Shown in pieces: positions 4,984 through 60,337 of a stretch of 64,000 nt of DNA. The DNA comes from Candidatus Enterousia sp. (GTDB lineage: Bacteria > Pseudomonadota > Alphaproteobacteria > Rs-D84), in NCBI GenBank assembly GCA_045592905.1, contig JAZNVR010000023.1, positions 12,986 through 76,985 of the forward strand. Direction: 5' to 3'. Numbering within the stretch: position 1 is the first letter of the stretch; every line of letters begins with the position of its first letter. Made by a program: the position numbers and the translations under genes. Below the pieces are notes generated by a model. That model had not been told where the DNA came from. It made no database searches and saw only the letters and a list, made by a program, of their open reading frames with translations.

Positions 4984-4990
4984 AACTGTT

Positions 4991-23150: not shown

Positions 23151-23172
23151 TTTGGTTTTTATTACAGATAAT

Positions 23173-23199: not shown

Positions 23200-23208
23200 G
23201 TTGCTTTT

Positions 23209-23526: not shown

Positions 23527-23602
23527 AACTTATACCCCCATGCTCTTTGTATTTTACATTTATATTATAAGTAATTTTTTATATAAATACAATGGGAATA
23601 TA

Positions 23603-25564: not shown

Positions 25565-25573
25565 TATATCGTA

Positions 25574-27004: not shown

Positions 27005-27026
27005 TCCAATTCCCTGTTCAGACTGA

Positions 27027-43182: not shown

Positions 43183-43200
43183 TACCAAGGGAAATTGATT

Positions 43201-43602
43201 ATGTCTAGAATTCGTCGTAGACAATCAGATGCTGGGATTCAATTGACCCCAATGATTGATGTTATGACAGTGCTGTTGGCGGTGTTTATGGTTACAACAC
43301 CAATGATGACAACAGGAATTGATTTGGAATTACCACGTGCAGGTGCATCTGCGATGACCGGTGCAGATCACGCAATGCAGATTAGTGTTGATGCATATGG
43401 ACGTTATTTTTTGTCTGAAATGCAATTGTCACAGGATGATGTTGTAAAACGTGCTGTTGCAATGCGTGGCGAAAATCCAAATTTGACAATTATGATAAGT
43501 GGCGATACACATGCAGATTATGGTGCGGTTATGTCTGTTATGGGAAAACTGAAAGATGCAGGTTTTCAGAAAGTTGGATTAAGAACACAACCAGAAAAAT
43601 AA
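43201..43602 (+). CDS. tolR: TolR (ExbD/TolR family)
   Basis: LTPMIDVMTVLLAVFMVTTP TM, then ExbD-like periplasmic domain. The ATG at 43201 is preferred to the TTG at 43195. Confidence 0.85.
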   Translation: MSRIRRRQSDAGIQLTPMIDVMTVLLAVFMVTTPMMTTGIDLELPRAGASAMTGADHAMQISVDAYGRYFLSEMQLSQDDVVKRAVAMRGENPNLTIMISGDTHADYGAVMSVMGKLKDAGFQKVGLRTQPEK

Positions 43603-43603
43603 T

Positions 43604-44347
43604 ATGGCTAAATTTAATCAATTTTCAACAGAAAATTTTATGATGGCTGTTTGCGGACATCTGATATTGTTTGTTGTATTAATGATGGCGGCAACAATTG
43701 TGTTTGAACGGGCTAAATTGGTTGCCCCAGACAGAATTCAGATTATTGAAATTGATTTGAATAACGTCAAGGTTTCTGGCGATGAAACTAAATTATATAA
43801 TGTTGGTACACCAGAAGAAAAACAGAAAGAAAGCCAAGAAGAAACATCTGTGTCAAAATCAGAAGAACAGACAATTGAAAAAACAGAAATAAAATCAACG
43901 ACTTTGGTTGAAGAAGAAACAACAGATGTAAAGAAAGAAGAACCTAAACAAGAAGCCAAAAAAGAAAATAAAAATGTAGTAAAGAAAAAGCGTATTGTTC
44001 GTGTCAATCGTGAGGTTTTATCCCTGGACAGAACACTGACAATATCTGTGGTTGATGCACTGCGTGTTGCAATGACACGTTGTTGGGTGATTGATAGTGG
44101 GCGTCCAGATATTGCAGATATTCGTGCGGTCGCACATCTAAAGATGCGTAAAAATGGTACGGTTCAAAATGTCTGGTTTGAATCTGCGGCACGTGCAGAA
44201 TCTGATCCTGCATTTGCATATGTATTGGATACAATCAAAGAAGCGATTGATACGTGTCAGCCATTTCGTATGTTGCCGGTTGGTGAATATGCAAAATGGC
44301 AAGATATTCAGTTAACCTTTTATCCAACCCAGGGTAAGGTTATGTAG
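43604..44347 (+). CDS. tolA: TolA-like protein
   Basis: N-terminal TM, a K/E-rich helical spacer and a C-terminal TonB/TolA-type domain, in the tolQ-tolR-tolA order. Confidence 0.75.
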   Translation: MAKFNQFSTENFMMAVCGHLILFVVLMMAATIVFERAKLVAPDRIQIIEIDLNNVKVSGDETKLYNVGTPEEKQKESQEETSVSKSEEQTIEKTEIKSTTLVEEETTDVKKEEPKQEAKKENKNVVKKKRIVRVNREVLSLDRTLTISVVDALRVAMTRCWVIDSGRPDIADIRAVAHLKMRKNGTVQNVWFESAARAESDPAFAYVLDTIKEAIDTCQPFRMLPVGEYAKWQDIQLTFYPTQGKVM

Positions 44348-44396
44348 TTTTTTACCGTTAAATAGCGAACACTGAGTTGTGTATAGAAATGTAAAT

Positions 44397-44425
44397 AAAA
44401 AACGCACCGGATGGTGCGTGTTTTT
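44397..44425. terminator. bidirectional terminator shared by tolA and rnpB
   Basis: AAAAAACGCACCGGATGGTGCGTGTTTTT. Confidence 0.8.
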
Positions 44426-44429
44426 ATTG

Positions 44430-44745
44430 CAAGACAGGCATATAAGCCGGGTTCTGTTCTGCCACAAATCAGTTTTATACCATTTCGTGGTAGTGGACAT
44501 GATTAATCTGCATATTGCATTGCTGCATATGTCAAGCCTTCTACCCGCCCCCAATGTGGGACACATATGCGGAGGCCTATTTGAAGTTGCTGCACGCAGA
44601 GATTGCCCGTTTCACCCGAATTTAATCGTTTCGTCACTGTTGCTCTAATCGTCAGGTCGCCCTGCCCGGTATATTAGCCGGTGCGTTGTCCCATGCAGCC
44701 CGGACTTTCCTCTGATATTAATCAGCCATGCCCAGCCTGTCTTGT
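44430..44745 (-). ncRNA. rnpB: RNase P RNA, bacterial type A
   Basis: The reverse strand contains the universal GAGGAAAGUCCGGGCU (P4 5' side) and ACAGAACCCGGCUUAU (P4 3' side). P1 pairs AGACAGGC with GCCUGUCU at the two ends. Confidence 0.9.
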
Positions 44746-44785
44746 GTTGGACATGTTATCAATATTTAGATAGATTTCAATGTTT

Positions 44786-45001
44786 TTATTTCTTTTCGCC
44801 CATATGTTTTGCGGATTCTAATGCCAGACGCAGGGATTGTTCTGCGATTTGACGAATTTTTGGTGCAAATGTTCGCATATTCATTGTGTCTGCAACTGTA
44901 TCGCCAAAATTTCGTGCGATATGTTCAATTTGTGCGGGCGAAATAATAAAAATATCACTGATAATACTGTCTGTACTTAAATTCTGAATGTTTTCACGCA
45001 T
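44786..45001 (-). CDS. small hypothetical protein
   Basis: 71-aa ORF with AGGGAG-N6-ATG. It is helical and charged, with no recognised family. Confidence 0.55.
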   Translation of the reverse strand: MRENIQNLSTDSIISDIFIISPAQIEHIARNFGDTVADTMNMRTFAPKIRQIAEQSLRLALESAKHMGEKK

Positions 45002-45135
45002 AATTTCTCCCTTTGTGAATAAAAATTTATCTTTTTAGACTTGCTAAATTCGTTTAGTGTTATTATATACATAAAGTATCTTGACCGCAAGGCTCAAAAT
45101 TGCTATATATCTCATGATAAATACAAGGAAGAAAG

Positions 45136-47748
45136 ATGGTAAAAAATATTATTGGTAAATTATTGGGGTCTGCAAATGATCGTTTGGTAAAAAGTTATGA
45201 TAAAACAGTGTCTTTAATCAATGATTTAGAGCCTAAATATCATGCAATGTCAGATGAACAGTTGCGGGAACAAACAAATGTTTTGCGTGCAAGATTGAAT
45301 GCAGGTGAAAAAGAAAAAGACGTTTTGCCAGATGCGTTTGCATTGGTTCGTGAGGCATCTATTCGTACAATTGGTCTGCGACATTTTAATGTGCAAATGA
45401 TTGGTGGTATGGTTTTAACCAATGGACAAATCGCAGAAATGAAAACTGGCGAAGGTAAAACACTGGTCGCAACATTGGCAATGTATTTAAAGGCATTGCA
45501 TGGCAAAGGTGCACATTTGATTACAGTAAATGATTATTTGGCATCACGTGACGCAGAATGGATGGGTGCTGTATATAAATTCTTGGGACTGTCGGTTGGT
45601 ATTATTCAGCACGACATGACAGATGAAGAACGTAGGGATGCATATGCGTGCGATATTACATATGTTACAAATTCGGAATTGGGTTTTGACTATTTGCGTG
45701 ACAATATGAAATTTTCCAAGAAACAACAGGTTTTGCGTCCTTTCTTTTATGCAATTGTTGACGAGGTAGACAGTATCTTGATTGATGAAGCACGTACACC
45801 ATTGATTATTTCTGGACCTGCCGAAGATACAAGTGAATTGTATGCCAAGGTTGATGCAGTTGTTGCACAGTTTACAGAATCTGATTTCAAGAAAGATGAA
45901 AAAGACAGACATGTAACATTAACAGAAGCCGGGGTTGATACTGCAACACGTTTGTTGAAAGAAGCAGATTTATTGGTTGGTGATAACTTGTACGCATCAG
46001 AAAACGCCCCATTAGTTATGCACATTCAACAATCTTTGTTGGCACATCATTTGTATCAAAAAAATGTTAACTATGTGGTCAGAAATGGCGAAATTTTAAT
46101 CGTTGATGAATTTACAGGTCGTGTTATGTCTGGTCGTCGTTTCGGCAAAGGTTTGCACCAGGCAATTGAAGCCAAAGAACATGTAAAGGTTCAACCGGAA
46201 AATCAAACAGTTTCCAGTATTTCTTATCAGAATCTGTTTCGTTTGTATCCAACATTGTCTGGTATGACAGGTACCGCAATGACCGAAGCAGCAGAATTTG
46301 AAGAAATTTATAAATTGCGTGTTGTTTCAATCCCGACAAATCGCCCTGTTGCACGAAATGATCATCATGATGAAATATATCGCAATAAAGATGAAAAGTA
46401 TGCCGCAATTCTGAAGCAGATATCAGATTGCGTTGCACGTAAACAACCTGTGTTGGTTGGAACTGTGTCAATTGAAAAATCTGAAGAATTGGCTGCAATT
46501 GTACGCAAGGAATTGAAAATTAATCCTGCTGTATTAAATGCAAAACATCATGAATCCGAAGCAAAAATTGTTGCACAGGCTGGTGCCCCAGGTGCAGTTA
46601 CAATCGCAACAAATATGGCCGGACGTGGAACTGATATTAAATTAGGCGGTAATGCAGAGGCGTTAATTGCAGAATTGGATACACAGTCGCCTGATTATGA
46701 AGAAAAGAAAAAAGAAATATACGATACAATAGAAGCAAATAAGAAAGATGTATTAAATGCAGGCGGTTTATATGTAATCGGTACAGAAAGACATGAATCA
46801 CGTCGTATTGATAATCAGTTGCGTGGACGTTCTGGGCGTCAAGGTGACCCAGGGGATTCCAAGTTCTTTTTGGCATTAGATGACGATTTAATGCGTATAT
46901 TTGGTGCTGCACGTTTGCAAGGAATGCTGACAACATTGGGACTGAAGTCGGGTGAAGCAATTACGCACCCATGGATAACCAAGGCATTAGAAAAGGCACA
47001 AAAACGTGTTGAAGCAAGATATTTTGAAGCACGTAAAGAATTGCTGAAATATGACGATGTTATGAATGAACAAAGAACAGTAATTTATAAACAACGTGAT
47101 GATTTGATGGTGTCTGATGATTTGTCGCCTTTGGCACAAGAAATGATAGCAGATGTTGTTGAAATTATTTGCGAAAACTGTATTCCAGAAAAAGCAATGG
47201 CTGCGGATTGGAATTTGAATGGTATTCATAATGCAATGATGCGTGTTTTTGCATTAGATATCACAGATATTGAAAAATGGAAAACAGACGAAGAAATTAC
47301 AGAACGTAAAGCATATGAATCACTGTTGGGATTGGCACAGCGACGTTATGCACACCAGGCGGAAAAATATGGCCCAGAAATGATGCAAATGGCATCAAGA
47401 CAAATGATGTTGGGTGCGTTGGATGCTGTGTGGAAAAAACATTTGCAACAGATGGATTACCTGCAAAGTGCAATTGGATTGCGTGGTTATGCACAAAAAA
47501 ATCCATTATATGAATATAAGCGTGAAGCGTTGGAATTATTCAAAAATACAGTAAATAATTTCAAGATTATGTCTATATCTTATATTTGTCGTATGGAATT
47601 AACACGTGAAGATGTTGCCGCAACCGAAGCAGAACGTAATAATCATGATGAAAAATTAAATCAGGCATCTGGGGACGCACGCAGAAATGCACCATGTCCA
47701 TGTGGGTCTGGGTTAAAGTTCAAGCATTGTTGCGGAAAGTTGCATTAA
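45136..47748 (+). CDS. secA: preprotein translocase ATPase SecA
   Basis: MKTGEGKTLVATL (Walker A), DEVDSILIDEARTPLIISG, TNMAGRGTDI, and the C-terminal zinc site CPCGSGLKFKHCCG. Confidence 0.97.
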   Translation: MVKNIIGKLLGSANDRLVKSYDKTVSLINDLEPKYHAMSDEQLREQTNVLRARLNAGEKEKDVLPDAFALVREASIRTIGLRHFNVQMIGGMVLTNGQIAEMKTGEGKTLVATLAMYLKALHGKGAHLITVNDYLASRDAEWMGAVYKFLGLSVGIIQHDMTDEERRDAYACDITYVTNSELGFDYLRDNMKFSKKQQVLRPFFYAIVDEVDSILIDEARTPLIISGPAEDTSELYAKVDAVVAQFTESDFKKDEKDRHVTLTEAGVDTATRLLKEADLLVGDNLYASENAPLVMHIQQSLLAHHLYQKNVNYVVRNGEILIVDEFTGRVMSGRRFGKGLHQAIEAKEHVKVQPENQTVSSISYQNLFRLYPTLSGMTGTAMTEAAEFEEIYKLRVVSIPTNRPVARNDHHDEIYRNKDEKYAAILKQISDCVARKQPVLVGTVSIEKSEELAAIVRKELKINPAVLNAKHHESEAKIVAQAGAPGAVTIATNMAGRGTDIKLGGNAEALIAELDTQSPDYEEKKKEIYDTIEANKKDVLNAGGLYVIGTERHESRRIDNQLRGRSGRQGDPGDSKFFLALDDDLMRIFGAARLQGMLTTLGLKSGEAITHPWITKALEKAQKRVEARYFEARKELLKYDDVMNEQRTVIYKQRDDLMVSDDLSPLAQEMIADVVEIICENCIPEKAMAADWNLNGIHNAMMRVFALDITDIEKWKTDEEITERKAYESLLGLAQRRYAHQAEKYGPEMMQMASRQMMLGALDAVWKKHLQQMDYLQSAIGLRGYAQKNPLYEYKREALELFKNTVNNFKIMSISYICRMELTREDVAATEAERNNHDEKLNQASGDARRNAPCPCGSGLKFKHCCGKLH

Positions 47749-47783: not shown

Positions 47784-47840
47784 GTTTTTTAGGAAATATT
47801 GTGGTTGCCTTGGGGTGGTGGTTTTGCTATGGTAATGCAC

Positions 47841-50800
47841 ATGGAAAGACAATTTATTCATCTTCGTACGCATTCTCGCTTTTCTGTTGGGGCAAGTACT
47901 TTGACAATAAAAAAAATACCAGCATTGTGTTTGGGGGCTGGTATGTCTGCGTGTGCGTTAACAGATACGAATTTAATGTCCGGGTGTGCAGAATTTTCTG
48001 ATGTTATGCCAAAAAACAAAGTTCAACCCATAATCGGTATTGAAATATCATTAAATCATCATACCGCAGATCCTAAAATATTACGTTCTGAATCATTATC
48101 AAAAATTGTGTTGCTGGCACAAAATCATACAGGGTATCTGAATTTATGTGATTTGAATAAAATAATGTATATGCGTCAAGATAATCATCATTTGGGGCCC
48201 TTTGTTACAATTGATGAATTAGCAGAATATAATAATGGACTGATTTGTTTGTCTGGTGCACACACAGGCCCAATCGGAATGGCGTTGTTAAATAATCAAG
48301 ATGATCAGGCAAAGCGTTATGCTGAAAAGTTTTTAGAAATATTTGGCAATCGTTTTTATGTTGAAATTCAACGTCATGGATTAGATGATGAAATAAAAAC
48401 AGAACCTGGATTTCTAAAAATTGCACAAGAATTAAATATACCAATCGTTGCAACAAATGATGTTTGTTTCGCAGCAGATACAGATTATGAATCTGCAGAT
48501 GCGTTAGGGTGTGTGTTGGGACAGACCAAGGTTATTGATCCAGAACGTTTGCGTAAATCATCGGAACAGTATTTCAAATCATATGAACAAATGTGTGAAA
48601 TATTTTCTGACCTGCCAGAGGCAATTGAAAACACTGTACGTATTGCGAAACGCTGTGGTTTTATGGTTAATGTTCATGAAAAACCATTATTGCCACGATT
48701 TGGTGACGATTTAGAAACAGAATGTCAAATGTTGCGTGATAACACGATGGCAGGATTGAAACGCAGGTTAGAGCAACATAATATTACAGATACTGCACCA
48801 TATTATGAACAGGCAGAATTTGAACTGGGTGTTATTATTGGTATGGGATTCCCAGGGTATTTTTTGATTGTTGCAGATTATATTGATTGGTGCAGAAATA
48901 ATGATGTTTTAACGGGGCCTGGGCGTGGTTCTGGTGCGGGTTCTATTGTTGCGTGGGCGTTGGGGATTACAAATGTTGACCCACTAAAATATGGTTTGTT
49001 GTTTGAAAGGTTCCTGAATCCTGATCGTATTTCAATGCCGGATTTTGACGTTGATTTTGAACCAACGGGAATTGAACGTGTTTTAGCGTATGTTTGTGAT
49101 AAATATGGATATGATTCTGTTTGTCGTATTATTACTTTTGGCAGTTTGCAGGCACGTGGTGCAATTCGTGATATTGGTCGTGTATATGGTATACCCTATT
49201 CTAAATCTGACAGACTGTCCAAATTAATACCGCAAGATGCCAAGACATTAAAAGAAGCGGTTGATATGTCTGGGGAAATTCAGGATATTCTGAATAACGA
49301 TCAAGATTTAAACAAGGTTGTTACCGTTGCTGAAGAATTAGAAGGTTCCCTGCGTAATTTGGGGCAACATGCATGTGGTGTTGTTATTGGCGACAGACCA
49401 ACAACTAAAATTGCCCCTGTGTATCGTGATCCTGCGAACCCGTTGCCATCATGTCAATTTGATGGAAAATATTTGGAAAAATCAGGTTTGATTAAATTTG
49501 ACTTTCTTGGTTTGGAAACGTTGGTTGTATTAAAATACGCAATACGCTTAATCCAACAAACACGTGGTATTAATATTGATTTAGATCAGATACCAACAGA
49601 TGATCCAAAGACCATGAAATTATGGCAGGCAGGTTTAACCGAAGGTATATTCCAATTTGATGCACCGTTTGTTAAACAGACATTGCGTAAAATGCATCCG
49701 ACAAGTTTCTTGGAAATTTCAGCATTAAATGCGTTAAATCGTCCAGGACCAATCGCATTTATTCCACAGTTTATTGCACGTATGCATGGCGAAGAATCTA
49801 TTGAATATGTTCATCCAAAGGCAGAACCGATATTAAAAGAAACATATGGTATTATTGTTTATCAAGAACAGGTTATGCAATTGACACGTGCGTTGGCTGG
49901 GTTTACTCGTGGTCAGTCTGATAACGTACGTAAAGCAATGGGTAAAAAACTGATTGAAATGCTGAATGAACTGGAAGGTAAGTTTTATGAGGGGTGTGAA
50001 AAAGAACAAACCTTAGACAGGGCAACGGCCAAAGATTTATGGGAAAAATTCAAGGAGTTTGCAAAATATGCATTTAATAAATCACATGCGATTGCGTACT
50101 CTATTGTTGCGAACCAGTGTGCATATTTAAAAGCAAATTATACACCTGAATTTTTGGCTGCATCTATGTCCAGTAATTTGAATGATACAGATCAATTGGC
50201 ATTATTTGTTGATGATGCGAAATCTAATTTTGGTATTCAAATTGTTGCACCAGATATAAATGAAAGTGAGTCTTTATTCACTGTTCGTGATGGTAAAATT
50301 ATATACGGTTTGGCTGCGTTAAAGGGTGTCGGGACTGTTGCAACAGATGCAATCGTTGCGGAACGAAATGCAAATGGTAAATTCAAGAATTTAACAGATT
50401 TTGCAAAACGTTGTGCGTCAATTATGAATAAAAGAATTTTAGAAGCATTTGCCAAGACTGGTGTATTGGATTCATTAGAACCAAATCGTGCCGCTATATA
50501 CATGAATGCAGATATGATTTTGTCTTATGCCGCAAAGTCCAGGGATGGTGCAAATATGTTGTCGTTGTTCGCAAATACAGTAGAAGACGATGTCATAGAA
50601 GATAGATTGCGTAAAAATTTACCAAAAACAGAGCCATGGACATTTGGCCAACGTCTAGAAAACGAATTATCTGCACTTGGGTTTTATATTTCTGCCCATC
50701 CATTGGATCAGTACAAGCATTTAATTAAATCTGCGAATCTTGCAACCAGTGCAACTTTGGCATCTATGGGCGACAGAAAGAGTGTGCAGATTGCAGTAAA

Positions 50801-51251
50801 TGTGAATTCATTCAGTCGTCGTCGTACTAAAACAGGCAAAGAAATGATTACGATAAACGCATCAGACAGTTTGGGTAATATTGATGCTGTTGCGTTTGGG
50901 GATTCTGCGATTGAATTTTCACAGATTTTATCTTCGGAAACGGTTGTTTTGATATCTGGCAAGACGTCTAATCGTGATGACAGGGTATCGGTTTTTGTTG
51001 ATTCAATTATACCTTTGACGAACTGGGTTGCGAAAATTGCGAAAAAAATAACATTGGATATTCGTGATGGTTCTGTATTACAGGATGTAAAAAAGGCAAT
51101 TGTTGCATTGCCACGTGGTTACACCCAGGTTGTATTAAATTTACATGCTGCTGACAAGGTTGCAACAATGGCATTATCTGGCGGGGTTGAATTGGGCAAT
51201 ACAACAATTGCTGACTTTACGGCCTTGGGATTGCGTGTGGGGGTTGAATAA
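47841..51251 (+). CDS. dnaE: DNA polymerase III alpha subunit
   Basis: PHP domain FIHLRTHSRFS, the GSGAGS.VA.ALGIT..DP and PDFD.DF motifs, and a C-terminal OB fold. The ATG at 47841 is preferred to the 47799 start. Confidence 0.95.
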   Translation: MERQFIHLRTHSRFSVGASTLTIKKIPALCLGAGMSACALTDTNLMSGCAEFSDVMPKNKVQPIIGIEISLNHHTADPKILRSESLSKIVLLAQNHTGYLNLCDLNKIMYMRQDNHHLGPFVTIDELAEYNNGLICLSGAHTGPIGMALLNNQDDQAKRYAEKFLEIFGNRFYVEIQRHGLDDEIKTEPGFLKIAQELNIPIVATNDVCFAADTDYESADALGCVLGQTKVIDPERLRKSSEQYFKSYEQMCEIFSDLPEAIENTVRIAKRCGFMVNVHEKPLLPRFGDDLETECQMLRDNTMAGLKRRLEQHNITDTAPYYEQAEFELGVIIGMGFPGYFLIVADYIDWCRNNDVLTGPGRGSGAGSIVAWALGITNVDPLKYGLLFERFLNPDRISMPDFDVDFEPTGIERVLAYVCDKYGYDSVCRIITFGSLQARGAIRDIGRVYGIPYSKSDRLSKLIPQDAKTLKEAVDMSGEIQDILNNDQDLNKVVTVAEELEGSLRNLGQHACGVVIGDRPTTKIAPVYRDPANPLPSCQFDGKYLEKSGLIKFDFLGLETLVVLKYAIRLIQQTRGINIDLDQIPTDDPKTMKLWQAGLTEGIFQFDAPFVKQTLRKMHPTSFLEISALNALNRPGPIAFIPQFIARMHGEESIEYVHPKAEPILKETYGIIVYQEQVMQLTRALAGFTRGQSDNVRKAMGKKLIEMLNELEGKFYEGCEKEQTLDRATAKDLWEKFKEFAKYAFNKSHAIAYSIVANQCAYLKANYTPEFLAASMSSNLNDTDQLALFVDDAKSNFGIQIVAPDINESESLFTVRDGKIIYGLAALKGVGTVATDAIVAERNANGKFKNLTDFAKRCASIMNKRILEAFAKTGVLDSLEPNRAAIYMNADMILSYAAKSRDGANMLSLFANTVEDDVIEDRLRKNLPKTEPWTFGQRLENELSALGFYISAHPLDQYKHLIKSANLATSATLASMGDRKSVQIAVNVNSFSRRRTKTGKEMITINASDSLGNIDAVAFGDSAIEFSQILSSETVVLISGKTSNRDDRVSVFVDSIIPLTNWVAKIAKKITLDIRDGSVLQDVKKAIVALPRGYTQVVLNLHAADKVATMALSGGVELGNTTIADFTALGLRVGVE

Positions 51252-52099
51252 TGACAAAGCATATTCCTGTATTATTAGATAGTGTTATGGATGCAATTGG
51301 TGATATATCTGGTCAAACCGTTGTTGATTGTACGTTTGGTGCCGGGGGGTATTCACGTGCTTTCTTGGATGCCGGGGCAAATGTCATTGCATTTGACAGG
51401 GATCCAAATGTTGTTGCAGACGCAGATGCATTGCAACGGGATTTTGGAACACGATTTCAATTTATTCCAAGACCGTTTTCTGGTATATCTGAATTGGATT
51501 GTCTGGTTGATGTAATCGTTTTTGATTTAGGAATTTCTTCAATGCAAATTGATATTGCATCACGTGGTTTTTCTTTTCGTGCAGATGCACCGCTGGATAT
51601 GCGTATGTCTGTGGACGGTATAACCGCAGCCCAATTAATAGAACAATTATCTGTGTCGGAATTGGCGGATATTCTGCGTAAATATGGCGATATTAGCAAG
51701 GCTGGCATTCTGGCACGTGCGATTAAAGATGCGTTGCCGAAAACAACGTTTGCATTGCGTGATTTAATTTATAATCCACGTGATGTTGCACCTGTGTTTC
51801 AAGCGTTGCGTATTGCTGTTAATGATGAAATGGGTGAACTGGAACGTGCGTTATCTGTGGTGCCAGAACATTTGAACATTGGTGGAAGGTGTATTTGTGT
51901 AACGTTTCATTCATTAGAAGACAGAATTGTTAAGAATACATTTCGTACATGGACAACGCCAGTTGGGGATCCACGAATGCCTGTATTGGCCCCTGCCCGA
52001 TTTGATTTAATAAAACCACAGGTACCAACAAAATCAGAATTGGAAAATAATCCACGTGCCCGGTCTGCACATATGCGTGGTGTAATAAAAACGTATTGA
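51251..52099 (+). CDS. rsmH: 16S rRNA (cytosine1402-N4)-methyltransferase
   Basis: HIPVLL..V.......VDCTFG.GGYSRA.L, DLG.SS.Q.D...RGFSF, FHSLEDR.VK. Its start overlaps the dnaE stop (TAATG). Confidence 0.9.
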   Translation: MTKHIPVLLDSVMDAIGDISGQTVVDCTFGAGGYSRAFLDAGANVIAFDRDPNVVADADALQRDFGTRFQFIPRPFSGISELDCLVDVIVFDLGISSMQIDIASRGFSFRADAPLDMRMSVDGITAAQLIEQLSVSELADILRKYGDISKAGILARAIKDALPKTTFALRDLIYNPRDVAPVFQALRIAVNDEMGELERALSVVPEHLNIGGRCICVTFHSLEDRIVKNTFRTWTTPVGDPRMPVLAPARFDLIKPQVPTKSELENNPRARSAHMRGVIKTY

Positions 52100-52146
52100 C
52101 CCAGGCGTTTGTTTTTTTGTACTGTATATGATGAAAGGAATATCAA

Positions 52147-52557
52147 ATGCGACAAAGTACATTAAGAAAGCATATTGAAAAGGCGGATATGGCAAAAAAA
52201 TCCAATCGCTTGGATTTGTCTTCTGACCAGGATTTAACGGTTGGTTTAATGAATTTGTTGAATATAGAAGAATATATAAAATTGCATACAACAAATGATT
52301 ATGCTGGGTTATTGGATATGGTTGTTGATATTCGTATGCGTTTAATGGAACGAATTGTGAATTCATCCGACAAAAACAAGGACACAATGGAACGGTTGCT
52401 GACTGAATCAATGTCGTGTATTGATGATGGGGTACATCTGTTGTCGTCTGGGGACAATGATACAGCGTATGCATTATTTGATGATGCGTATGCAAAATAT
52501 TCATTGTTCTGGGGTTTGAATATGGGATTAATAGATAAGAAAGATATAGAAAGTTGA
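52147..52557 (+). CDS. hypothetical cytoplasmic helical protein
   Basis: RBS AAAGGAA-N6-ATG. 136 aa. The antisense 188-aa ORF has junk-like composition. Confidence 0.65.
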   Translation: MRQSTLRKHIEKADMAKKSNRLDLSSDQDLTVGLMNLLNIEEYIKLHTTNDYAGLLDMVVDIRMRLMERIVNSSDKNKDTMERLLTESMSCIDDGVHLLSSGDNDTAYALFDDAYAKYSLFWGLNMGLIDKKDIES

Positions 52558-52619
52558 AATTAACTATTGATTCCAATATGCAAAAAATGATAAAATGCAA
52601 AAAAGAGAGAAGGAAAGTG

Positions 52620-55133
52620 ATGCCTATGTTTAAGAATTTTTACCGTTTTTCTGCTGTTTTAGCAATATTTGCGTGTGCTACATCTGTGTTCGCAGACCAG
52701 GCACCAAATCCACGTAGTGCAGTTGCAGTTAATACTGCGAACAGTCGTTCCAGTAGCAAGGTTGTAACACGTGGTGATGGAACCGCTGGTACAGTTGTTT
52801 CACGTACAGGTGCAACTTCTGGGCGTTCTGCATCTGTTTCAGAACGTTCTGGCACAACAACAGCACGTACGGGACGCAACGTGTTGCAGATGGGTAATGT
52901 TGCGAATCGTGCAGCAGCGACATCTGCACGCAGTATAACCAAGGCATCCCCTGCACGCAGTGCGGTTGCAGGCAGCAAAATTGCAAATCCACGCAGTGCG
53001 GTCAGAACGGTTACTGGGGCAACGGCTGCATCACGTGCAGCGAATCGTGCACGTGCGACTGCGGTGTTTAGTGATATTTCTAAAATTGGTGGCGGATATG
53101 CACAATGTCGTGAATCGTATGCGACATGTATGGACCAGTTCTGTGCAAATGCAAATGATACATTCCGTCGTTGTTATTGTAGTGATAAGTTTACAGAATT
53201 TAACGATACAGAAGAAGCATTGAACCAGGCCAAGGTATTATTGCAACAATTTGAAGATAATAATTTGAATGCAGTTGATAAAACCGCAGCAGAAGTTAAT
53301 GCAATGTATTCTGCAACTGTGGGTGAAGCGGCAATTAAAAATGACGTCAGTGGTGCACAATCTATATTAAATGAAATTGGTGATTTGTTGTCTGGTAAAA
53401 AGAAAGTAGAAAAACCAGAAAAAGAAAAGACCACGTTTGATTTAAGCAGTTTGGATTTTACAATTAATGTTGATGACATTTGGGGCGGATCGGATTCAAT
53501 GTTTGATGCGGCTAGCAAACGTAACACTGTTGATATGACACAATTGTTTGGTCGTGAATTGTTTAATGAATCTAATAAACAATGTTTGGAAATTATTGGT
53601 GATACATGTTCGTCTGATGCAATGTTGAACATGTCTGTCAGTGCGTATAACATCATGATTACCCAGGATTGTAACCTGTATGAAAAGAAAATTGATGCAC
53701 AACGTGAAGCGGTAAAAAATACTGTTCGCCAGGCGGAAAAATATTTACGTGAAGCACGTTTGGAAGAATATCGTGCACATAATTCAGCAGACGTAAACGA
53801 ATGTATCGGCAAGGTACGTACCGCAATATTACAGGATACAGCATGTGGTGAAGATTATAAACGTTGTTTGGATTATACCGGGCTGTATATCAATCAAACA
53901 ACAGGCGAACCAATTTATTCCCCATTGTTGTTCAAATTGGTTGAAATTATTAATTTATATAACAGTGGAAATACATCATCTGACGTATTGTCATATAACA
54001 AGGAATTTGATAAATTCTTGGATTCTAAAAAGATGTTTGTAACCAAGGCATTGGATTCTTGTCGTGATATTGCAGATAATGTTTGGACAGAATTCAAACG
54101 TACTGCCCTGTTGGAAATTGCCCAGGCCCAAGATGAAAAGATAGAAGAAGTCAAGGCATCATGTGTAACAACAATGGGTGAATGTTATGATACACAATCT
54201 GGTGCATTAAAAGATTTTGATAAAACATCTGCCCAGGCATCTGGGGCGTTGGCGGCCAATGCTGCACGTGCAATGTGTTCGGACAAGGTTGCAGCATGTG
54301 CTGCGTTGTATGCACCAAATAACAAGACAGGCTGTAAGTTTAATGCCCAGGGTCAGGTTGAAAATGCGGCAAATTGTGGATTGACACAGTTGTTGGATTT
54401 CGTGGCATTGAATGACAGTGTAAAAATTGCCGAAGGTTGTGCCCAGGCGGTTACAAAATATGCCGAAGATACATGTGCACCATCCAGTGCAGATGAAGAC
54501 AAGGCGTATCCATGGGGTTGCCGCTTGTTATCACGTAACAAGTTGGAAAAGAATATCTTGGATCGTGCAGCGGTTTACTGTAATGTAAAGCCCACTGATG
54601 GCGATGATAGATTGAATAATGAATTGGTTCAGGTTGAAACCACCGTCAGAAGTGTTATTGACACAATTACAACAGAATTGTCATCTGTGTTAAATGAAGA
54701 ATGTGTAAATGCAGGTGGTATTTGGGTTGATTCTACTGAATCTGAATCTGAAGTTACATATTGTGTTGCCAATGGTAAAGTGACTGAGTCTGGTGGGGAA
54801 TGTAACGGTGAATTGTATACCATGGTTAGTGGTTATCAGGTAAATAAACCAAACAGCAGCCAAGTAATGAACCCTGATGAGGCTGGAGAATATGAAGAAA
54901 ATGCGTTCTATACAGCGATAAAGGTTTCTGCAAACGTTCACAAAGATGCAATACGTTCATATGGTGTATGTTTTAGAAACGATGTAAAAATGCATTGCGA
55001 ATTACAGGGTTCAGAATATGCAACATACAATGCGACAACAGGTATGTGCGAATTCAAGGATGAATGGTACAGTATGAAGTGTGAACAGTTGGGCGGTACA
55101 TTTGCGGACAACGTATGCTATTTGGCAGAATAA
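52620..55133 (+). CDS. giant secreted Cys-rich protein, paralogue 1 (basic R/S/T-rich N-region, CMDQFC domain)
   Basis: The ATG at 52620 follows AGAGAGAAGGAAAG. Signal peptide ...ATSVFA/DQ, a ~125-aa Arg/Ser/Thr/Ala-rich tract with NPRSAV x2, then YAQCRESYATCMDQFC...RRCYCSD. It is collinear over ~450 aa with the 56638-59214 product. Confidence 0.8.
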   Translation: MPMFKNFYRFSAVLAIFACATSVFADQAPNPRSAVAVNTANSRSSSKVVTRGDGTAGTVVSRTGATSGRSASVSERSGTTTARTGRNVLQMGNVANRAAATSARSITKASPARSAVAGSKIANPRSAVRTVTGATAASRAANRARATAVFSDISKIGGGYAQCRESYATCMDQFCANANDTFRRCYCSDKFTEFNDTEEALNQAKVLLQQFEDNNLNAVDKTAAEVNAMYSATVGEAAIKNDVSGAQSILNEIGDLLSGKKKVEKPEKEKTTFDLSSLDFTINVDDIWGGSDSMFDAASKRNTVDMTQLFGRELFNESNKQCLEIIGDTCSSDAMLNMSVSAYNIMITQDCNLYEKKIDAQREAVKNTVRQAEKYLREARLEEYRAHNSADVNECIGKVRTAILQDTACGEDYKRCLDYTGLYINQTTGEPIYSPLLFKLVEIINLYNSGNTSSDVLSYNKEFDKFLDSKKMFVTKALDSCRDIADNVWTEFKRTALLEIAQAQDEKIEEVKASCVTTMGECYDTQSGALKDFDKTSAQASGALAANAARAMCSDKVAACAALYAPNNKTGCKFNAQGQVENAANCGLTQLLDFVALNDSVKIAEGCAQAVTKYAEDTCAPSSADEDKAYPWGCRLLSRNKLEKNILDRAAVYCNVKPTDGDDRLNNELVQVETTVRSVIDTITTELSSVLNEECVNAGGIWVDSTESESEVTYCVANGKVTESGGECNGELYTMVSGYQVNKPNSSQVMNPDEAGEYEENAFYTAIKVSANVHKDAIRSYGVCFRNDVKMHCELQGSEYATYNATTGMCEFKDEWYSMKCEQLGGTFADNVCYLAE

Positions 55134-55150
55134 TTGAATGGGGTTAACAT

Positions 55151-56557
55151 ATGAATACGAATAAAGTATCTTTGTTATCTTTGATGATATTGTTGTGTGC
55201 TGTACCAATGGCGAATGCAGCAAGTAATTCTGATGGCACAAAATATCGTTCTGATTGGGGATTAAATGATGGCAGTATAACATCATTAGCCTGCTCTGGT
55301 TCTGGGGCGGATGCCGGGTTTAGTAAGTCGCATACAGGTGAAGAACCAAGTGTTGGTAGAGATGAATACTGGCATAAATGGTTGGCAAAACATTTTACAG
55401 ATGATCAAAAAGGTGATTGGTCATATGGTGCAGTTTATTATATTGCACATGAAATGTCAGAACATGGTTATAAATTCTGTAAAACGGTTGTCCAGGGCGA
55501 TCGTGATAGTTGTACATCAGACAGTACATTTTTGATGTATTATGGATTAGGCGATTGTTTGTGGATTTGTGAAAAGGGATATTATGGTGATGGCTGTACC
55601 AGCAAGACAATTGATACAACACAACCGGACACCAGTGTCCTGAAAAGACGCAAGTCATATGCAAATGGTAAAATTCATCCGTTGGTTTCTACCAAAGATA
55701 TGCGTACAGGTGGAAATATAAAGACGAAAATACCAATGTTCTTTTCTTCACACAAGGTGAAATGTTCGGATGGTAATCAGGTTAATTTGTTAAAAATGAA
55801 AAAAAAGCAAGAACATGATGTTGTTTTGGCTATCAAGACAATCACAGATTCTGACAGTTTATGGAAATTTACGTTGTCGCCAATGGTAATTCGTTCTGGC
55901 GGTGCCAAGGGATGCCATGGTGTTGATGATACTGCGTGGCCAATGATAAAATGGGCCGGCCAGGAAAGTGCAAACTATTGCCCATCTGCAGGGTTTATAT
56001 ATGATGCAACAAAATCTGCGTGTATTGCAAATGTTCCATTAGCAGAATCACAGGCTGCCGAAGAAGCAGCATCAAATGCAGCAAGTGAATTGCAACAGGC
56101 AATTGCAGATGCGGAAAAAGACAGACAAAACAAATTGAATTTGTTATGCCCTACTTTCGTTAAGGAAAATTATAATCAAAAAATCCATGATTTTATAGAA
56201 TCTAAGTTTGGTGAAACAACATGTTATAACTTAAAATGCAAGGATTCTGAATCTGGTTTTTATGAAGCAGATATGGATTCAACAACAGTGATTCCATGTA
56301 ATAAATGTGCACCAGCAGATTCAAAAAGCGATATGTTGTATGGTGTTGACAGTGATGGATATTGCGTAGAATGTGGTTTGGGTAAATATTTTGACAAAAG
56401 TACAAAAAAATGTGTAGTAGCAACCGCCATAACCAAAGAACAAATGAAAGGTGAGATTAGTTCCACTGGTTCTTTGAAAAAGACCGCAACAGATCGTTGT
56501 TGGACAAAATCAACCCCAGCAGAGTACAGAGAGTGTTTAAATTTAGATAAAGAATAA
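55151..56557 (+). CDS. secreted Cys-rich protein with EGF-like and furin/VSP-like Cys spacing
   Basis: Signal peptide ...AVPMANA/AS, CLWICEKGYYGDGC and CVECGLGKYFDKSTKKC. 468 aa. Confidence 0.8.
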   Translation: MNTNKVSLLSLMILLCAVPMANAASNSDGTKYRSDWGLNDGSITSLACSGSGADAGFSKSHTGEEPSVGRDEYWHKWLAKHFTDDQKGDWSYGAVYYIAHEMSEHGYKFCKTVVQGDRDSCTSDSTFLMYYGLGDCLWICEKGYYGDGCTSKTIDTTQPDTSVLKRRKSYANGKIHPLVSTKDMRTGGNIKTKIPMFFSSHKVKCSDGNQVNLLKMKKKQEHDVVLAIKTITDSDSLWKFTLSPMVIRSGGAKGCHGVDDTAWPMIKWAGQESANYCPSAGFIYDATKSACIANVPLAESQAAEEAASNAASELQQAIADAEKDRQNKLNLLCPTFVKENYNQKIHDFIESKFGETTCYNLKCKDSESGFYEADMDSTTVIPCNKCAPADSKSDMLYGVDSDGYCVECGLGKYFDKSTKKCVVATAITKEQMKGEISSTGSLKKTATDRCWTKSTPAEYRECLNLDKE

Positions 56558-56582
56558 AAAAAACGCCAATTGGCGTTTTTTT
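56556..56582. terminator. bidirectional terminator between convergent Cys-rich genes
   Basis: AAAAAAAACGCCAATTGGCGTTTTTTT. Confidence 0.85.
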
Positions 56583-56637
56583 ATTATGTGTTTTGTGTAA
56601 CAAATATTAATGTATAAAATATATCATCATATACAGA

Positions 56638-59214
56638 TTATATACCAACCGGTACTGTTAATAGTTCTTCTTCTGTTCCGTCTGTGCATTTAATTTGATT
56701 GTTTTCATACATAGAATGTATACATACCTGATTTTTATATGATATAGACTTACCCGATTTCCAATTTGTTGATATAACCATTTCTTCTTTGTTTTCTGTG
56801 CTGTCATTGTTTTCTGTGGCTGTTTTATCGTAATATTCTGTAACACATTTTGCGGTTTTGCCATTTTCACTGCGACGTGCACCGTTTTCCCAACATGAAC
56901 ATATTCCCCATGATTTTGTATCAATTGTTTCATGGTAGTTGTGTGGGCATACGTTTTCGTTTGCGGTTAATCCGTATAAATCGCTTAGTTTCTGCAATGT
57001 TATTGGGAATGTAGATTCGTCCGAGATATCGTCTGGCAGTTGGCACATATTTCCACTTGCACTGAAATTATATATATTTCTGTCAATGTTTGTATATTCA
57101 ATAAAGCGTCCCTGCAGGTTCATGCATTGGGTTGATAATACAGATAATATTTTATTATATACTTCGGTTGCAACGCCCGATGAACGTGGATGACGTAATA
57201 TTTTTTGCGGTATATCGTCGGGGTTAGTAAAGTATGTGTATTCTACCTCTTGGGATGTGCTGAGTATTATACTTCCTTGTTTCTTTCTTGTAACGTGCAC
57301 ATATTTATCAAATCCACCAAACACTTCTTCAATCAGTTCTTTGTCGCTGCATGCGGGTATTTCGGCAACCTGTTGTGCACATATAGATTTATATTTTGAT
57401 TTGGTAAGGCTTTTGTCTCCGTTTTCGGTGCATTTTGCGCACTCTGGTTCATCTTTTTCACAGATTGTGTCTTTTCTGTCGTTGGTGGATGTGTAAATGT
57501 ACTCGTTACATCCTTTGTCGTACAGTGTAAACCAGTCAATGGCTTCGCCTGCGTTAAACAGACCGCTGTATGGATAGTAAAAGTTTTGATAATTTACACC
57601 ACCGTATTTGTCAAAACATTGTTGAACAACGGCACGACATGCCGCACGTGTGTCTGTGTCTTTTTGATTCGCAATATAATCCTTGATAATATTGCCATCA
57701 AACATGCCATTACAGGATTCAACATAATCTGTACACATTTGCGTATTTAATGCAATTTTGTCTGGTTGTATAACAATGTTGTTCCCATTGGTTAATACCT
57801 GCATTGCGGTGGTAATTGCCTTGTCGCTGTTGATATAGCATGATGAAACAAAATCAAAACAACCCTGCTTAATTTCGTTTACCTTGGCACGTTGTGCATA
57901 GTATATGTCAAGCAGTGCCTTGTCCAGATAGTCGGCCCATGCAATATCTGCTTTTTCAACACATTTGTCCATCGCAGGGGCAGCAAATTTTTTAACACGA
58001 CTGACAAAATTGTTCACAAACGTTTTGTTGCGTTGAATTGTAGATAACTTTTGATGTGCAGAATCAACCCCATCCGCAAATGTTAATAATTCTGCCAGTT
58101 TATAGAATTGTGCAACACCAGCAATCGGTTTGCCCGTAGATACATCAATGTATTCACCGTTGTCCAAACATCTGTGATAGTTTTTACCGCATACTTCTTC
58201 GCTAAGTATTGCTGCCTCTATCTCGTTAATGCATGTGGTTAAGTCAGATGAATTATGTTTTTGCCGATTTTCAACACGTGCCAAATCTAGCATGGCACTG
58301 CCTTCACGAACGGCAGATTTCAATTGTTTCTGTGTTGTTTCAATGGCCGTCTGGACGGTATTACAGTCTTGTTCAACAGCCATTAAATATGCAGTAATTG
58401 CACGCTGTAATGATGCGTCGGTACAATCGTTTTTTACAGCCTGACGACATTGTGGGTATACTGCATTATATAACGCCAATCCGTTATAGGCGGCAATTGC
58501 CTGACCTGCATCAGATGTGCCAAATGCATTGGCAGTGTCAAAAGACATATTAATACTGTTTAAATCAGAATATTTACCACCAACATTTGTGTCCTTGCCA
58601 CGAATTGAATTCATGATTGCCTGTAATAATGCCTTGGATGCAGATTTGTCAGATGTTAATGCATTTTCCCCTTCGGATGCATTTTTCATCGCAGATGCCT
58701 GGGCAGCCGTCATGCCAACAACGTCCAAGGTTTCTGTAAATGCAGTTAATTGTTCATTTGCATCTTCAAGTGTTTTACGCTGTTCAATCAAATCAAATAC
58801 ACGATCGTTACAAGAACAACGACGATAATCATCGTTTTTTAATGTGCAAAACTGATCCATACATGAAAAATATGTCTTTTTACAATTTTCGTATTCTGCA
58901 CCAGTGCGTGTTTCAGACATGCTGGGGGCGGTGGTTGCAGCACGTGATATAACATTGCGTTTTGTAGAACTGGTTGTGTTTCGTGATTGAATACCCGGTC
59001 TGGTTTGTGTCGCACTGCGTGGATTTTTTGCAGTGTTACCACGTGCAGAAATTACAGATGTTCGTGGTTTTGATGGCAGAACAGTTGTTGCAACACGTGA
59101 TTGGGTTGCACGATTTGGACGTGTGCGTGATGTGCTGTTCCCATCACGAACAGCAGCGTCAACAACGCCAACGCAAATCAATGTGTTAATAATAAATACA
59201 AGAATTTTCTTCAT
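56638..59214 (-). CDS. giant secreted Cys-rich protein, paralogue 2
   Basis: ATG at 59214 (MKKILVFIINTLICVGVVDA). Basic R/S/T tract with KNPRSAT, then YENCKKTYFSCMDQFC...RRCSCND. It is a paralogue of the 52620-55133 product. Confidence 0.8.
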   Translation of the reverse strand: MKKILVFIINTLICVGVVDAAVRDGNSTSRTRPNRATQSRVATTVLPSKPRTSVISARGNTAKNPRSATQTRPGIQSRNTTSSTKRNVISRAATTAPSMSETRTGAEYENCKKTYFSCMDQFCTLKNDDYRRCSCNDRVFDLIEQRKTLEDANEQLTAFTETLDVVGMTAAQASAMKNASEGENALTSDKSASKALLQAIMNSIRGKDTNVGGKYSDLNSINMSFDTANAFGTSDAGQAIAAYNGLALYNAVYPQCRQAVKNDCTDASLQRAITAYLMAVEQDCNTVQTAIETTQKQLKSAVREGSAMLDLARVENRQKHNSSDLTTCINEIEAAILSEEVCGKNYHRCLDNGEYIDVSTGKPIAGVAQFYKLAELLTFADGVDSAHQKLSTIQRNKTFVNNFVSRVKKFAAPAMDKCVEKADIAWADYLDKALLDIYYAQRAKVNEIKQGCFDFVSSCYINSDKAITTAMQVLTNGNNIVIQPDKIALNTQMCTDYVESCNGMFDGNIIKDYIANQKDTDTRAACRAVVQQCFDKYGGVNYQNFYYPYSGLFNAGEAIDWFTLYDKGCNEYIYTSTNDRKDTICEKDEPECAKCTENGDKSLTKSKYKSICAQQVAEIPACSDKELIEEVFGGFDKYVHVTRKKQGSIILSTSQEVEYTYFTNPDDIPQKILRHPRSSGVATEVYNKILSVLSTQCMNLQGRFIEYTNIDRNIYNFSASGNMCQLPDDISDESTFPITLQKLSDLYGLTANENVCPHNYHETIDTKSWGICSCWENGARRSENGKTAKCVTEYYDKTATENNDSTENKEEMVISTNWKSGKSISYKNQVCIHSMYENNQIKCTDGTEEELLTVPVGI

Positions 59215-59350
59215 CTCTGATGAAATTTTAGCAAAATTATGAATTTTAGTGCAAGTGAATAATAACTGTTTGTGTGCTAAAATTACAATAAAAATAATTT
59301 TTTCTTGTTGCAATTAAGGGTTTTATAGATTAATATCATGTTCGCTTTAT

Positions 59351-59437
59351 GGGCGTATGGCGGAATTGGTAGACGCGCTAGTTTCAGGTACTAGTGGTAG
59401 CAATACCTTGGAAGTTCGAGTCTTCTTACGCCCACCA
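59351..59437 (+). tRNA. tRNA-Leu (anticodon CAG)
   Basis: Acceptor GGGCGUA/UACGCCC, anticodon arm CUAGU-UUCAGGU-ACUAG, long variable arm, T-loop UUCGAGU, encoded CCA. Confidence 0.9.
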
Positions 59438-59446
59438 TTGTATTAT

Positions 59447-59522
59447 GGGGTTGTAGCTCAGTTGATAGAGCGCTACGTTCGCATCGTAGAGGTCGTGGGT
59501 TTGAGTCCCATCAGCTCCACCA
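59447..59522 (+). tRNA. tRNA-Ala (anticodon CGC)
   Basis: G3:U70 in the acceptor stem, anticodon arm CUACG-UUCGCAU-CGUAG, encoded CCA. The D-loop is AGUUGAUA and the T-loop UUUGAGU (A19/U56). Confidence 0.85.
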
Positions 59523-59670
59523 ACATTATATGCTAATTATTTTTGTTTTATACGTTATTGTATATAGTAGTAATTCCTTGATAGATTTAAGTAAATATTA
59601 ATTAATGTAATATTTTTTGCTTGCATATGTTAAATCATATTGATAATATCTAGGCGTTATTACACACGTC

Positions 59671-59757
59671 GGGGATATGGCGGAATGGTAGACGCTGAGG
59701 ACTTAAAATCCTTTGATCATTGCGATCGTGTGGGTTCAAGTCCCACTATCCCCACCA
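59671..59757 (+). tRNA. tRNA-Leu (anticodon UAA)
   Basis: Acceptor GGGGAUA/UAUCCCC, anticodon loop CUUAAAA, long variable arm, T-loop UUCAAGU, encoded CCA. Confidence 0.9.
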
Positions 59758-59762
59758 CAAAT

Positions 59763-59786
59763 AAATGCCCGTTGCGGGCATTTTTT
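59763..59786 (+). terminator. intrinsic terminator after the tRNA
   Basis: UGCCCG-UUG-CGGGCA plus UUUUUU. Confidence 0.8.
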
Positions 59787-59793
59787 ATTTCCT

Positions 59794-60213
59794 TTATTCT
59801 TGACCGTTTAATGCTTTTAACATGCCCATAATCGCAGCACGTTGCTTGTCACTGGGTAATTTCCAGTATAAATTAATTATTTCCAATGATTCGTTCTTGG
59901 ATAATGGGTCGTCCATGGATTGATTAGATACATAATTTTTTGGTAAACGACCACTGCGGGTTTCGTGATCAATATATCCAGGCAGACCATAAAAGAAAAA
60001 TGAAACAGGTGTTTGCAAGGCAACGCTGATTTCAAATAAGCGTGATGCAGATATGCGATTGCCCGCAGATTCGTATTTCTGAATCTGTTGAAATGTAACA
60101 CCGCATGTTCCAGCCAAATCTTTTTGAGATAGTCCCATCATAACACGACGTAATTGAATGCGTTGACCAATATGCTCGTCAATTGTTGATGGTAAAAATG
60201 GTTTGCCACTCAT
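59794..60213 (-). CDS. XRE-family helix-turn-helix transcriptional regulator
   Basis: IGQRIQLRRVMMGLSQKDLAGTCGVTFQQIQKYESAGNRISASRLFEIS is a canonical HTH_3 domain. Confidence 0.85.
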   Translation of the reverse strand: MSGKPFLPSTIDEHIGQRIQLRRVMMGLSQKDLAGTCGVTFQQIQKYESAGNRISASRLFEISVALQTPVSFFFYGLPGYIDHETRSGRLPKNYVSNQSMDDPLSKNESLEIINLYWKLPSDKQRAAIMGMLKALNGQE

Positions 60214-60337
60214 GTTTTATTCCTTTGTAAATATAAGAGAATGTTCCTAATGTTCTTATACAAGTTTTCTTTTAGTTTTGCAATTAAAAAACAGTTGTGA
60301 TACCATATCGTGTAAGATGTAGAAAAAGGATTTATAA

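Follow-up and report, generated by a model that had tools for sequence, protein, structure and literature searches.

A family of putatively Sec-exported, cysteine-rich paralogues in gut Alphaproteobacteria of the order Rs-D84

The chlamydial protein OmcB, which is built of beta-rich repeats, is, together with OmcA, a Sec-exported, cysteine-rich envelope protein of an organism with a reduced, host-dependent genome, in which a basic N-terminal part leads into a body rich in disulfides. A heparin-binding motif in this N-terminal part mediates adhesion (PMC2229832). Here, we analyzed two genes, A and B, located in a stretch of 64,000 nucleotides (the window) from Candidatus Enterousia sp. (assembly GCA_045592905.1, contig JAZNVR010000023.1, positions 12,986 to 76,985 of the forward strand), whose products recall this general plan. 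They are almost certainly lineage-specific, Sec-exported proteins, in which a polybasic disordered tail precedes a predicted all-alpha body with a fixed cysteine framework, and which make up two ancient paralogues.

The order Rs-D84, to which Candidatus Enterousia belongs, comprises organisms whose genomes are mostly smaller than 1 Mb, which lack respiratory chains, have an incomplete glycolysis, do not synthesize amino acids, nucleotides or lipids, and are presumed to depend on other cells (PMC12306168). Bacteria of the Rs-D84/Enterousia lineage occur widely in the guts of humans, livestock and termites.

Sequence family and predicted structure of A and B

The open reading frame (ORF) listing confirmed two convergent genes encoding proteins of 837 (A) and 858 (B) amino acids, for which the term 'giant' used in the initial annotation is too strong at a size of about 850 residues. 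BLASTP aligned the two proteins with 31% identity over 508 amino acids (A 76–567, B 23–508; E 5e-62), slightly more than the approximately 450 collinear residues originally described, and the motifs and shared cysteine positions quoted at that time are all present. The C-terminal thirds do diverge as claimed (about 14% identity), but they are not unrelated: the family hidden Markov model (HMM) covers B at positions 5–810 of 814 and aligns it nearly end to end, which indicates that these thirds are still homologous. Judged from these alignments, A and B are true, ancient paralogues. The same HMM revealed no further family member elsewhere in the window.

Both proteins carry the Sec signals previously attributed to them. 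Signal peptidase I-type N-termini are conserved in the homologues (A-type ...VFA/DQAPNPRSA, B-type ...VDA/AVRDG) and comprise, in both subfamilies, a basic n-region, then a hydrophobic h-region and finally an A-x-A-type site, although this assignment is a heuristic reading of sequence features. A lipobox was found in 0 of 240 sequences and a twin-arginine motif was likewise absent. A scan of the window ORFs revealed neither transmembrane segments nor hydrophobic helical hairpins in A or B.

The mature proteins begin with a tail of 62–157 residues across homologues, composed mostly of Ala, Ser, Arg, Val, Thr and Gly in A-type sequences and with Thr, Ser and Ala as the most abundant residues in B-type sequences. 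Arginine accounts for about 12% of the tail in both types, acidic residues are nearly missing (isoelectric point 12), and the net charge lies between +8 and +20 in 239 of 239 homologues. An RGD motif noticed in A (TRGDG), which resembles an integrin-binding site, was dropped as a candidate, being kept in only 48 of 120 A-type orthologues and replaced by RDG in the B-type. As a separate observation, an exact 16-nucleotide inverted match between the two genes (52985–53000 and 59011–59026) encodes the N-P-R-S-A motif common to both tails in a part where the proteins are only about 22% identical, and may reflect chance or motif constraint.

An AlphaFold2 model of A, built on a 120-sequence alignment, reached a mean pLDDT (predicted local distance difference test) of 74. 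Residues 17–154 are predicted to be disordered (pLDDT below 50), residues ~156–700 form an all-alpha body with a pLDDT above 90 over most of 310–700 and with long helices of 55 (333–387) and 49 residues (485–533), and residues 700–837 form a small alpha/beta domain. Foldseek comparison of this model retrieved no match in the PDB (best E 0.33, TM score at most 0.13) or in BFVD. Within orthologous groups, the identity of the core is 0.69–0.77, similar to that of RsmH in the same genomes, while the tail reaches 41–45% and the C-terminal region 39–57%.

An exhaustive profile search against 1.84 billion representative proteins (clusters at 50% identity) returned 885 clusters at E <= 1e-3, of which 426 had E <= 1e-30. 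The family comprises at least three subfamilies: grouping of the retrieved sequences at 40% identity separated an A-type (208 sequences), a B-type (142) and a longer third type (20; ~1040 aa), the named members of which come from metagenome-assembled genomes labelled Rickettsiales, Proteobacteria or Alphaproteobacteria bacterium; one distant member of this third type has a different gene context. The homologues of A (>1100) and B (>900) all stem from gut metagenomes, and those with a name are without exception titled "hypothetical protein" of an uncultured Alphaproteobacteria bacterium. In addition, a scan of one genome per GTDB species yielded at least 568 loci, the best 80 of which were used for synteny and titles. 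These 80 loci are titled Candidatus Enterousia or uncultured Alphaproteobacteria and originate from the guts of humans, ruminants, horses, chickens and rabbits, the closest relative among them sharing 77% identity in A and 95% in DnaE. On the sequence evidence, the family appears to be restricted to the uncultured gut Alphaproteobacteria of the order Rs-D84, that is, to Candidatus Enterousia and its relatives.

Searches of A and B against Pfam and NCBIfam gave nothing at E <= 1 except a noise-level EzrA match, PADLOC gave no match, and neither did the PDB when searched by sequence with a 120-sequence profile. The lone PHROGs match is weak (phrog_17106, function unassigned, E 4e-4; A 355–471, 53682–54032) and is not found in B; a tblastn search with the A core against 50,697 phage records returned nothing. 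Long family members (1040–1180 aa) contain no additional known domain, and Pfam detected no peptidoglycan-binding domain (OmpA_C, LysM, SPOR) or membrane anchor in A or B. Apart from the weak PHROGs match, no enzyme or known family was matched, and the initial annotation, too, had recognized no enzyme motif; its view of the system as undescribed is supported by these searches and by the absence of a description of A or B in the literature searched.

Cysteines, export and possible roles at the envelope

The mature parts of A, B and C, the latter being the product of an exported, cysteine-rich gene downstream of A, contain 30, 32 and 20 cysteines, respectively. The 16 core cysteines follow each other at the same spacing in A and B (6, 4, 9, 1, ~130, 7, ~20, 43, 13, 6, ~66, 33, 6, ~32, 6), and the framework expected in homologues is indeed invariant among 355 full-length family members, of which 306 (86%) have an even number of cysteines after the signal peptide. 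The C-terminal cysteine positions differ between subfamilies, and cysteines are gained or lost pairwise in this region (572–586, r 0.97; 614–644, r 0.91; 619–634, r 0.87), a pattern which is confounded by subfamily phylogeny. The four CX6C motifs of the core sit on predicted helices, and the location of 515/522 and 553/560 on consecutive helices suggests a doubly stapled antiparallel hairpin in the model. CxxCH is absent from A and B, the core is devoid of CxxC, and A contains only three histidines. From cysteine parity and from paired gain and loss, we infer that intramolecular disulfides may link the cysteines and thereby lock the helical bundle into an extracytoplasmic protein that resists proteases.

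How these features could be put to use is a matter on which we can be less definite. The reading we prefer, tentatively and with somewhat less than even confidence, is that A and B serve as an extracytoplasmic structural coat or adhesin at the envelope or cell surface. Following export through the Sec pathway, disulfides would staple the long-helix core into a stable extracytoplasmic body, the polycationic tail would bind a polyanionic surface, which could be the cell's own lipopolysaccharide or else glycans or the envelope belonging to a partner or host cell, and the outward-facing or ligand-specific role might fall to the variable C-terminal region. A and B may work together in this. We favor a coat or adhesin because of the architecture itself, the fast-evolving, exported and cysteine-rich C that is co-transcribed with A, a giant Flg_new-repeat neighbor at a related locus, and the presumably partner-dependent lifestyle. 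The window encodes a normal diderm envelope with peptidoglycan (BamD, LpxB, two RlpA-like DPBB and SPOR proteins, an M23 peptidase, TolQ/TolR), with MurJ and LysM also found among the genes of the window and related loci. It also encodes a prepilin peptidase, and a pilus-type or type II secretion system-type export route for A and B is conceivable.

Besides the phylogenetic confounding of the cysteine pairs mentioned above, several observations weigh against this proposal. Only 7 of 239 homologues have a Cardin-Weintraub heparin-binding motif (XBBXBX) in the tail, and A and B lack a lipobox, beta-barrel, autotransporter domain or recognized surface-sorting signal. A purely periplasmic location fits equally well. 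Moreover, the conservation of the core at housekeeping level (~70–77%) would not usually be expected of an adhesin that faces a host, and points to an internal partner that is itself conserved. Disulfide formation usually relies on DsbB, which is re-oxidized through quinones and the respiratory chain. No gene for a Dsb protein or for VKOR was seen among the ORFs scanned in the 64-kb window, and the DsbB-quinone route may be missing, since the lineage is reported to have no respiratory chains (PMC12306168).

The main rival to the coat or adhesin proposal, possible but somewhat unlikely in our view, is a periplasmic scaffold, the long disulfide-stapled helices of which would space or brace the outer membrane against the inner membrane or peptidoglycan while the basic tail binds peptidoglycan or anionic lipids in a membrane leaflet, thereby replacing tethers lost in the course of genome reduction. 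A scaffold would be in line with a Sec signal as the only targeting feature, no outer-membrane targeting or secretion signal being recognizable in A or B, with the housekeeping-level conservation of the core (0.69–0.77), with the wide occurrence of both paralogues in the lineage and with the ancestral position of B beside lpxB/lpxA and envelope genes. It would also agree with the gene order at 42694–45136, where RNase P RNA and secA, and not tolB-pal, come after tolQ, tolR and a 247-aa TolA-like ORF, although tolB-pal may simply sit elsewhere in the genome. However, A and B possess no OmpA_C, LysM or SPOR domain and no membrane anchor, scaffolding proteins of this kind are not usually so rich in cysteine, and the variable C-terminal region and the fast-evolving C (21–47% identity) resemble exposed proteins.

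Extending the coat or adhesin proposal, A and B could be two subunits of a new disulfide-stabilized helical surface structure that defines the Rs-D84/Enterousia envelope, is held by the tails on the cell's own, a partner's or a host cell's surface, and serves attachment and living off another cell. We consider this bolder version unlikely. If true, it would entail a fold without counterpart in the PDB and would require disulfide formation without a quinone-linked Dsb pathway.

An effector or toxin secreted toward the partner or host cell, with an Arg-rich tail that binds or penetrates the target and an active helical body in a colicin-like order, is more doubtful still. The presumed partner-dependent lifestyle (PMC12306168), an architecture in which long helices stand between a disordered N-terminal tail and a variable C-terminal region, and the different C-terminal extensions of the ~1040-aa subfamily would suit such a function; its genes, however, have no immunity-like neighbor, keep a fixed syntenic rather than patchy position and encode a highly conserved core, and no toxin, enzyme or pore-forming domain or fold and no hydrophobic helical hairpin or transmembrane segment was found in the proteins.

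It is very improbable that the cysteines bind metals or act in redox reactions, for example as thiol sinks for metals or oxidants in the anoxic gut. This habitat and the reported lack of respiratory chains make oxidative folding less obvious (PMC12306168), and the cysteine content is very high (3.7–3.9%); the even cysteine parity and the paired gain and loss, the absence of CxxC and CxxCH clusters from the core, the three histidines of A, the spread of the cysteines over ~680 residues instead of in clusters, and the CX6C spacing, which brings cysteines to the same face of a helix, an arrangement known from disulfide-stapled helical hairpins, all argue against it.

Taken together, A and B account for about 0.6% of a genome below 1 Mb, and nearly every species sampled has retained them. 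Their size, this near-universal retention and an unrecognized fold put them among the foremost candidates for components of the lineage's envelope or attachment machinery, and make them handles for antibodies, for sorting coupled to fluorescence in situ hybridization and for metaproteomic markers. They also raise the question of how an anaerobe without respiratory chains makes proteins apparently holding 15–16 disulfides. Should A and B prove to be ordinary periplasmic proteins, they would be just another orphan family.

Gene order and neighborhood of the locus

A survey of relatives by tblastn placed A downstream of rsmH, in the order dnaE-rsmH-(D)-A, in nearly all of the best 80 species-level loci, usually followed by C (21–47% identity) and then by the HTH-iPGM genes. 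B adjoins A only in the window and in three close relatives (L006, L007, L049). Elsewhere B adjoins lpxB/lpxA, with the same three tRNA genes directly upstream of it (L004, L005), and loci without B lack these tRNAs. The ancestral B site of the window, flanked by lpxB and a conserved 105-aa gene, is empty. Since B and the tRNAs are linked beside lpxB elsewhere and this site is empty here, they form a block of ancestral origin whose place in the chromosome changed in one sub-clade, and the tRNA adjacency thus marks an internal rearrangement, not an integration site.

Among the ORFs at 51251–60213 no integrase is present, as already stated in the initial annotation, and the only regulator-like gene is the HTH_3 gene, itself part of the conserved synteny. 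A search for attachment-site (att)-like direct repeats of the tRNA 3' end at 51000–60300 retrieved only chance-level short repeats and the likeness of the two tRNA-Leu genes to each other. The GC content of D, A, C and B (0.35–0.41) shows no anomaly relative to the window (0.38) and rsmH (0.41), and the searches with A and B returned no phage or defence match. From gene order and composition, A and B are vertically inherited core genes of a small genome, not a mobile island. The original reading, a horizontally acquired adhesin island inserted at the tRNA cluster downstream of rsmH, is hardly credible: the adjoining tRNA genes, the lineage-restricted orphan genes and the lack of the usual dcw genes after rsmH speak for it, but it is contradicted by the conserved dnaE-rsmH-(D)-A order, by the B/tRNA block found beside lpxB, by the missing tRNAs in loci without B, and by the absence of an integrase, att-like repeats, GC deviation and phage or defence matches.

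The features of the locus and of other genes discussed here are compiled in Table 1. The genes dnaE, rsmH, D, A and C form one same-strand run, with which B is convergent; the dnaE 3' end overlaps the start of rsmH, and the intergenic gaps measure 47 bp (rsmH-D), 62 bp (D-A) and 17 bp (A-C). The short A-C gap and a terminator only after C indicate that A and C are co-transcribed. For A, a Met at 52626 may be the true start. The remaining elements of the initial layout were recovered: A and B flank the cysteine-rich, secreted C and follow D, which has no signal peptide, and the tRNA-Leu/Ala/Leu genes lie beside the locus, followed by the HTH_3 gene and iPGM.

Table 1. Coordinates of features in the window (aa, amino acids)
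Feature	Coordinates	Strand	Basis or remark
dnaE	47799-51251	+	ORF listing
rsmH (16S rRNA m4C1402 methyltransferase)	51251-52099	+	Orthologous products in L001 and L003 match Methyltransf_5
D, 136 aa, without signal peptide	52147-52557	+	ORF listing
A, 837 aa	52620-55133	+	ORF listing
A, putative signal peptide, aa 1-25 (...SVFA/DQ)	52620-52694	+	Sequence reading
A, polybasic disordered tail, aa 26-155	52695-53084	+	Composition, pLDDT, net charge
A, predicted all-alpha conserved core, aa 156-570, 16 invariant Cys including four CX6C	53085-54329	+	
A, more variable C-terminal region, aa 571-837 (helices, then small alpha/beta domain)	54330-55133	+	
C, 468 aa, exported, Cys-rich	55151-56557	+	ORF listing
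Bidirectional intrinsic terminator between convergent C and B, AAAAAAACGCCAATTGGCGTTTTTTT	56557-56582	no strand	
B, 858 aa, A paralogue	56638-59214	-	ORF listing
B, signal peptide aa 1-20; polybasic tail aa 21-105; core aa 106-510; then C-terminal region			
tRNA-Leu(cag), tRNA-Ala(cgc), tRNA-Leu(taa) cluster	59351-59757	+	Divergent from B
Cys-rich ORF, signal-peptide-like N-terminus	8482-9195	-	4.7-7.8% Cys (range of three)
Cys-rich ORF, 105 aa, signal-peptide-like N-terminus	23209-23526	-	4.7-7.8% Cys (range of three)
Cys-rich ORF, signal-peptide-like N-terminus	31531-32193	+	4.7-7.8% Cys (range of three)
Two slightly overlapping ORFs, 187 and 166 aa	4483-5491	-	4.8-5.4% Cys
Conserved cluster with gcrA	21632-27497		Adjoins ancestral B site
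lpxB	21632-22819		
653-aa protein	23603-25564		
Prepilin peptidase	27027-27497		
760-aa protein	28150-30432		
tolQ	42694-43182		
tolR	43195-43602		
RNase P RNA	44426-44744	-	

C evolves fast, and the identity given above refers to its positional homologues downstream of A in many genomes. A furin- or ephrin-receptor-type cysteine repeat, suggested by eye for C, is unsupported by Pfam (best match CBM_14, E 0.59). D is a cytoplasmic, lineage-specific protein with an invariant N-x2-DLSSDQDL motif, usually encoded directly upstream of A, and its 426 homologues all belong to the same lineage. The AlphaFold2 model of D (pLDDT 87) is an all-helix bundle without a fold match in the PDB, and Pfam gave no match. 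About one fifth of the best 80 loci lack a D, or at least a recognizable one, upstream of A, and for this reason D gives no functional lead. Most D homologues are about 200 aa long and share a strongly conserved C-terminus (...W(V/I)K.AVNCCIE-COOH) with a CaaX-like 'CCIE' end, a tail that D of the window and its closest relatives (126–144 aa) lack.

The three other cysteine-rich exported ORFs reported earlier all exist, with the corrections that the first ends at 9195 and that the one at 23209–23526 lies on the minus strand. The two overlapping ORFs at 4483–5491 are also rich in cysteine, and have no signal peptide and no Pfam match. The ancestral B site adjoins a conserved cluster that comprises gcrA, the prepilin peptidase and exported proteins without Pfam match (476, 653 and 105 aa), and that could be an uncharacterized pilus or secretion locus. 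Visual inspection showed that a stretch of about 70 residues is duplicated within the 653-aa protein (...DAAKIAEKTAELDKLKDS...DDVKKYKET...). The 760-aa protein, which has few cysteines and no Pfam match and does not belong to the A/B family, is conserved beside gcrA in L004 and L005, the two copies being 45% identical. At related loci, a 3527-aa Flg_new-repeat protein follows the A-C pair (L001, 14741–22619), and a 1235-aa Flg_new protein lies near the locus (L003, 1–292) with weak or faint Ephrin_rec_like, NCD3G and TNFR-type cysteine-rich matches; such giant proteins are striking for genomes below 1 Mb.

Comparison with known systems

Genomic islands associated with tRNA genes share tRNA neighbors and orphan genes with this locus, whereas the integrase, att repeats, patchy distribution and atypical GC content that distinguish such islands are each lacking here. 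The CxxCH and clustered CxxC motifs of haem c or Fe-S proteins are missing, the former from the whole of A and B and the latter from their core.

Cysteines at fixed spacing on helices are also known from the CHCH twin-CX9C fold and from the Sel1-like Hcp proteins of Helicobacter, with which a stapled-hairpin comparison can be drawn. A and B differ in being far larger and in having CX6C in place of CX9C or CX3C, and they gave no Sel1 or CHCH match in Pfam and no Foldseek match in the PDB. By a similar analogy, the variant surface glycoproteins of trypanosomes and the Duffy-binding-like domains of Plasmodium are exported long-helix bundles with conserved disulfides and a variable distal part that serve as surface coats and adhesins of host-associated parasites. 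No fold match was found, though the PDB holds those structures, and A and B are single-copy and syntenic with a highly conserved core, not a variant multigene family.

The comparison with OmcB carries furthest, in that Sec export, richness in cysteine, a basic N-terminal part ahead of a putatively disulfide-rich body and a reduced, dependent genome recur in A and B. The differences are nevertheless substantial: Pfam and NCBIfam indicate no sequence homology of A or B to OmcB or OmcA, A and B are predicted to be all-alpha, and their tail is a long diffuse polycation in which, as indicated above, few homologues carry a Cardin-Weintraub motif. A replacement of peptidoglycan by A and B, following the chlamydial paradigm, is ruled out by the genes for RlpA-like SPOR proteins, M23, MurJ and LysM; as the window encodes a peptidoglycan-bearing diderm envelope, a cysteine-rich shell in place of a wall is inapplicable, and A and B need not replace the wall. 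With these differences in mind, and by analogy of plan, OmcB may be regarded as the closest functional analogue of A and B.

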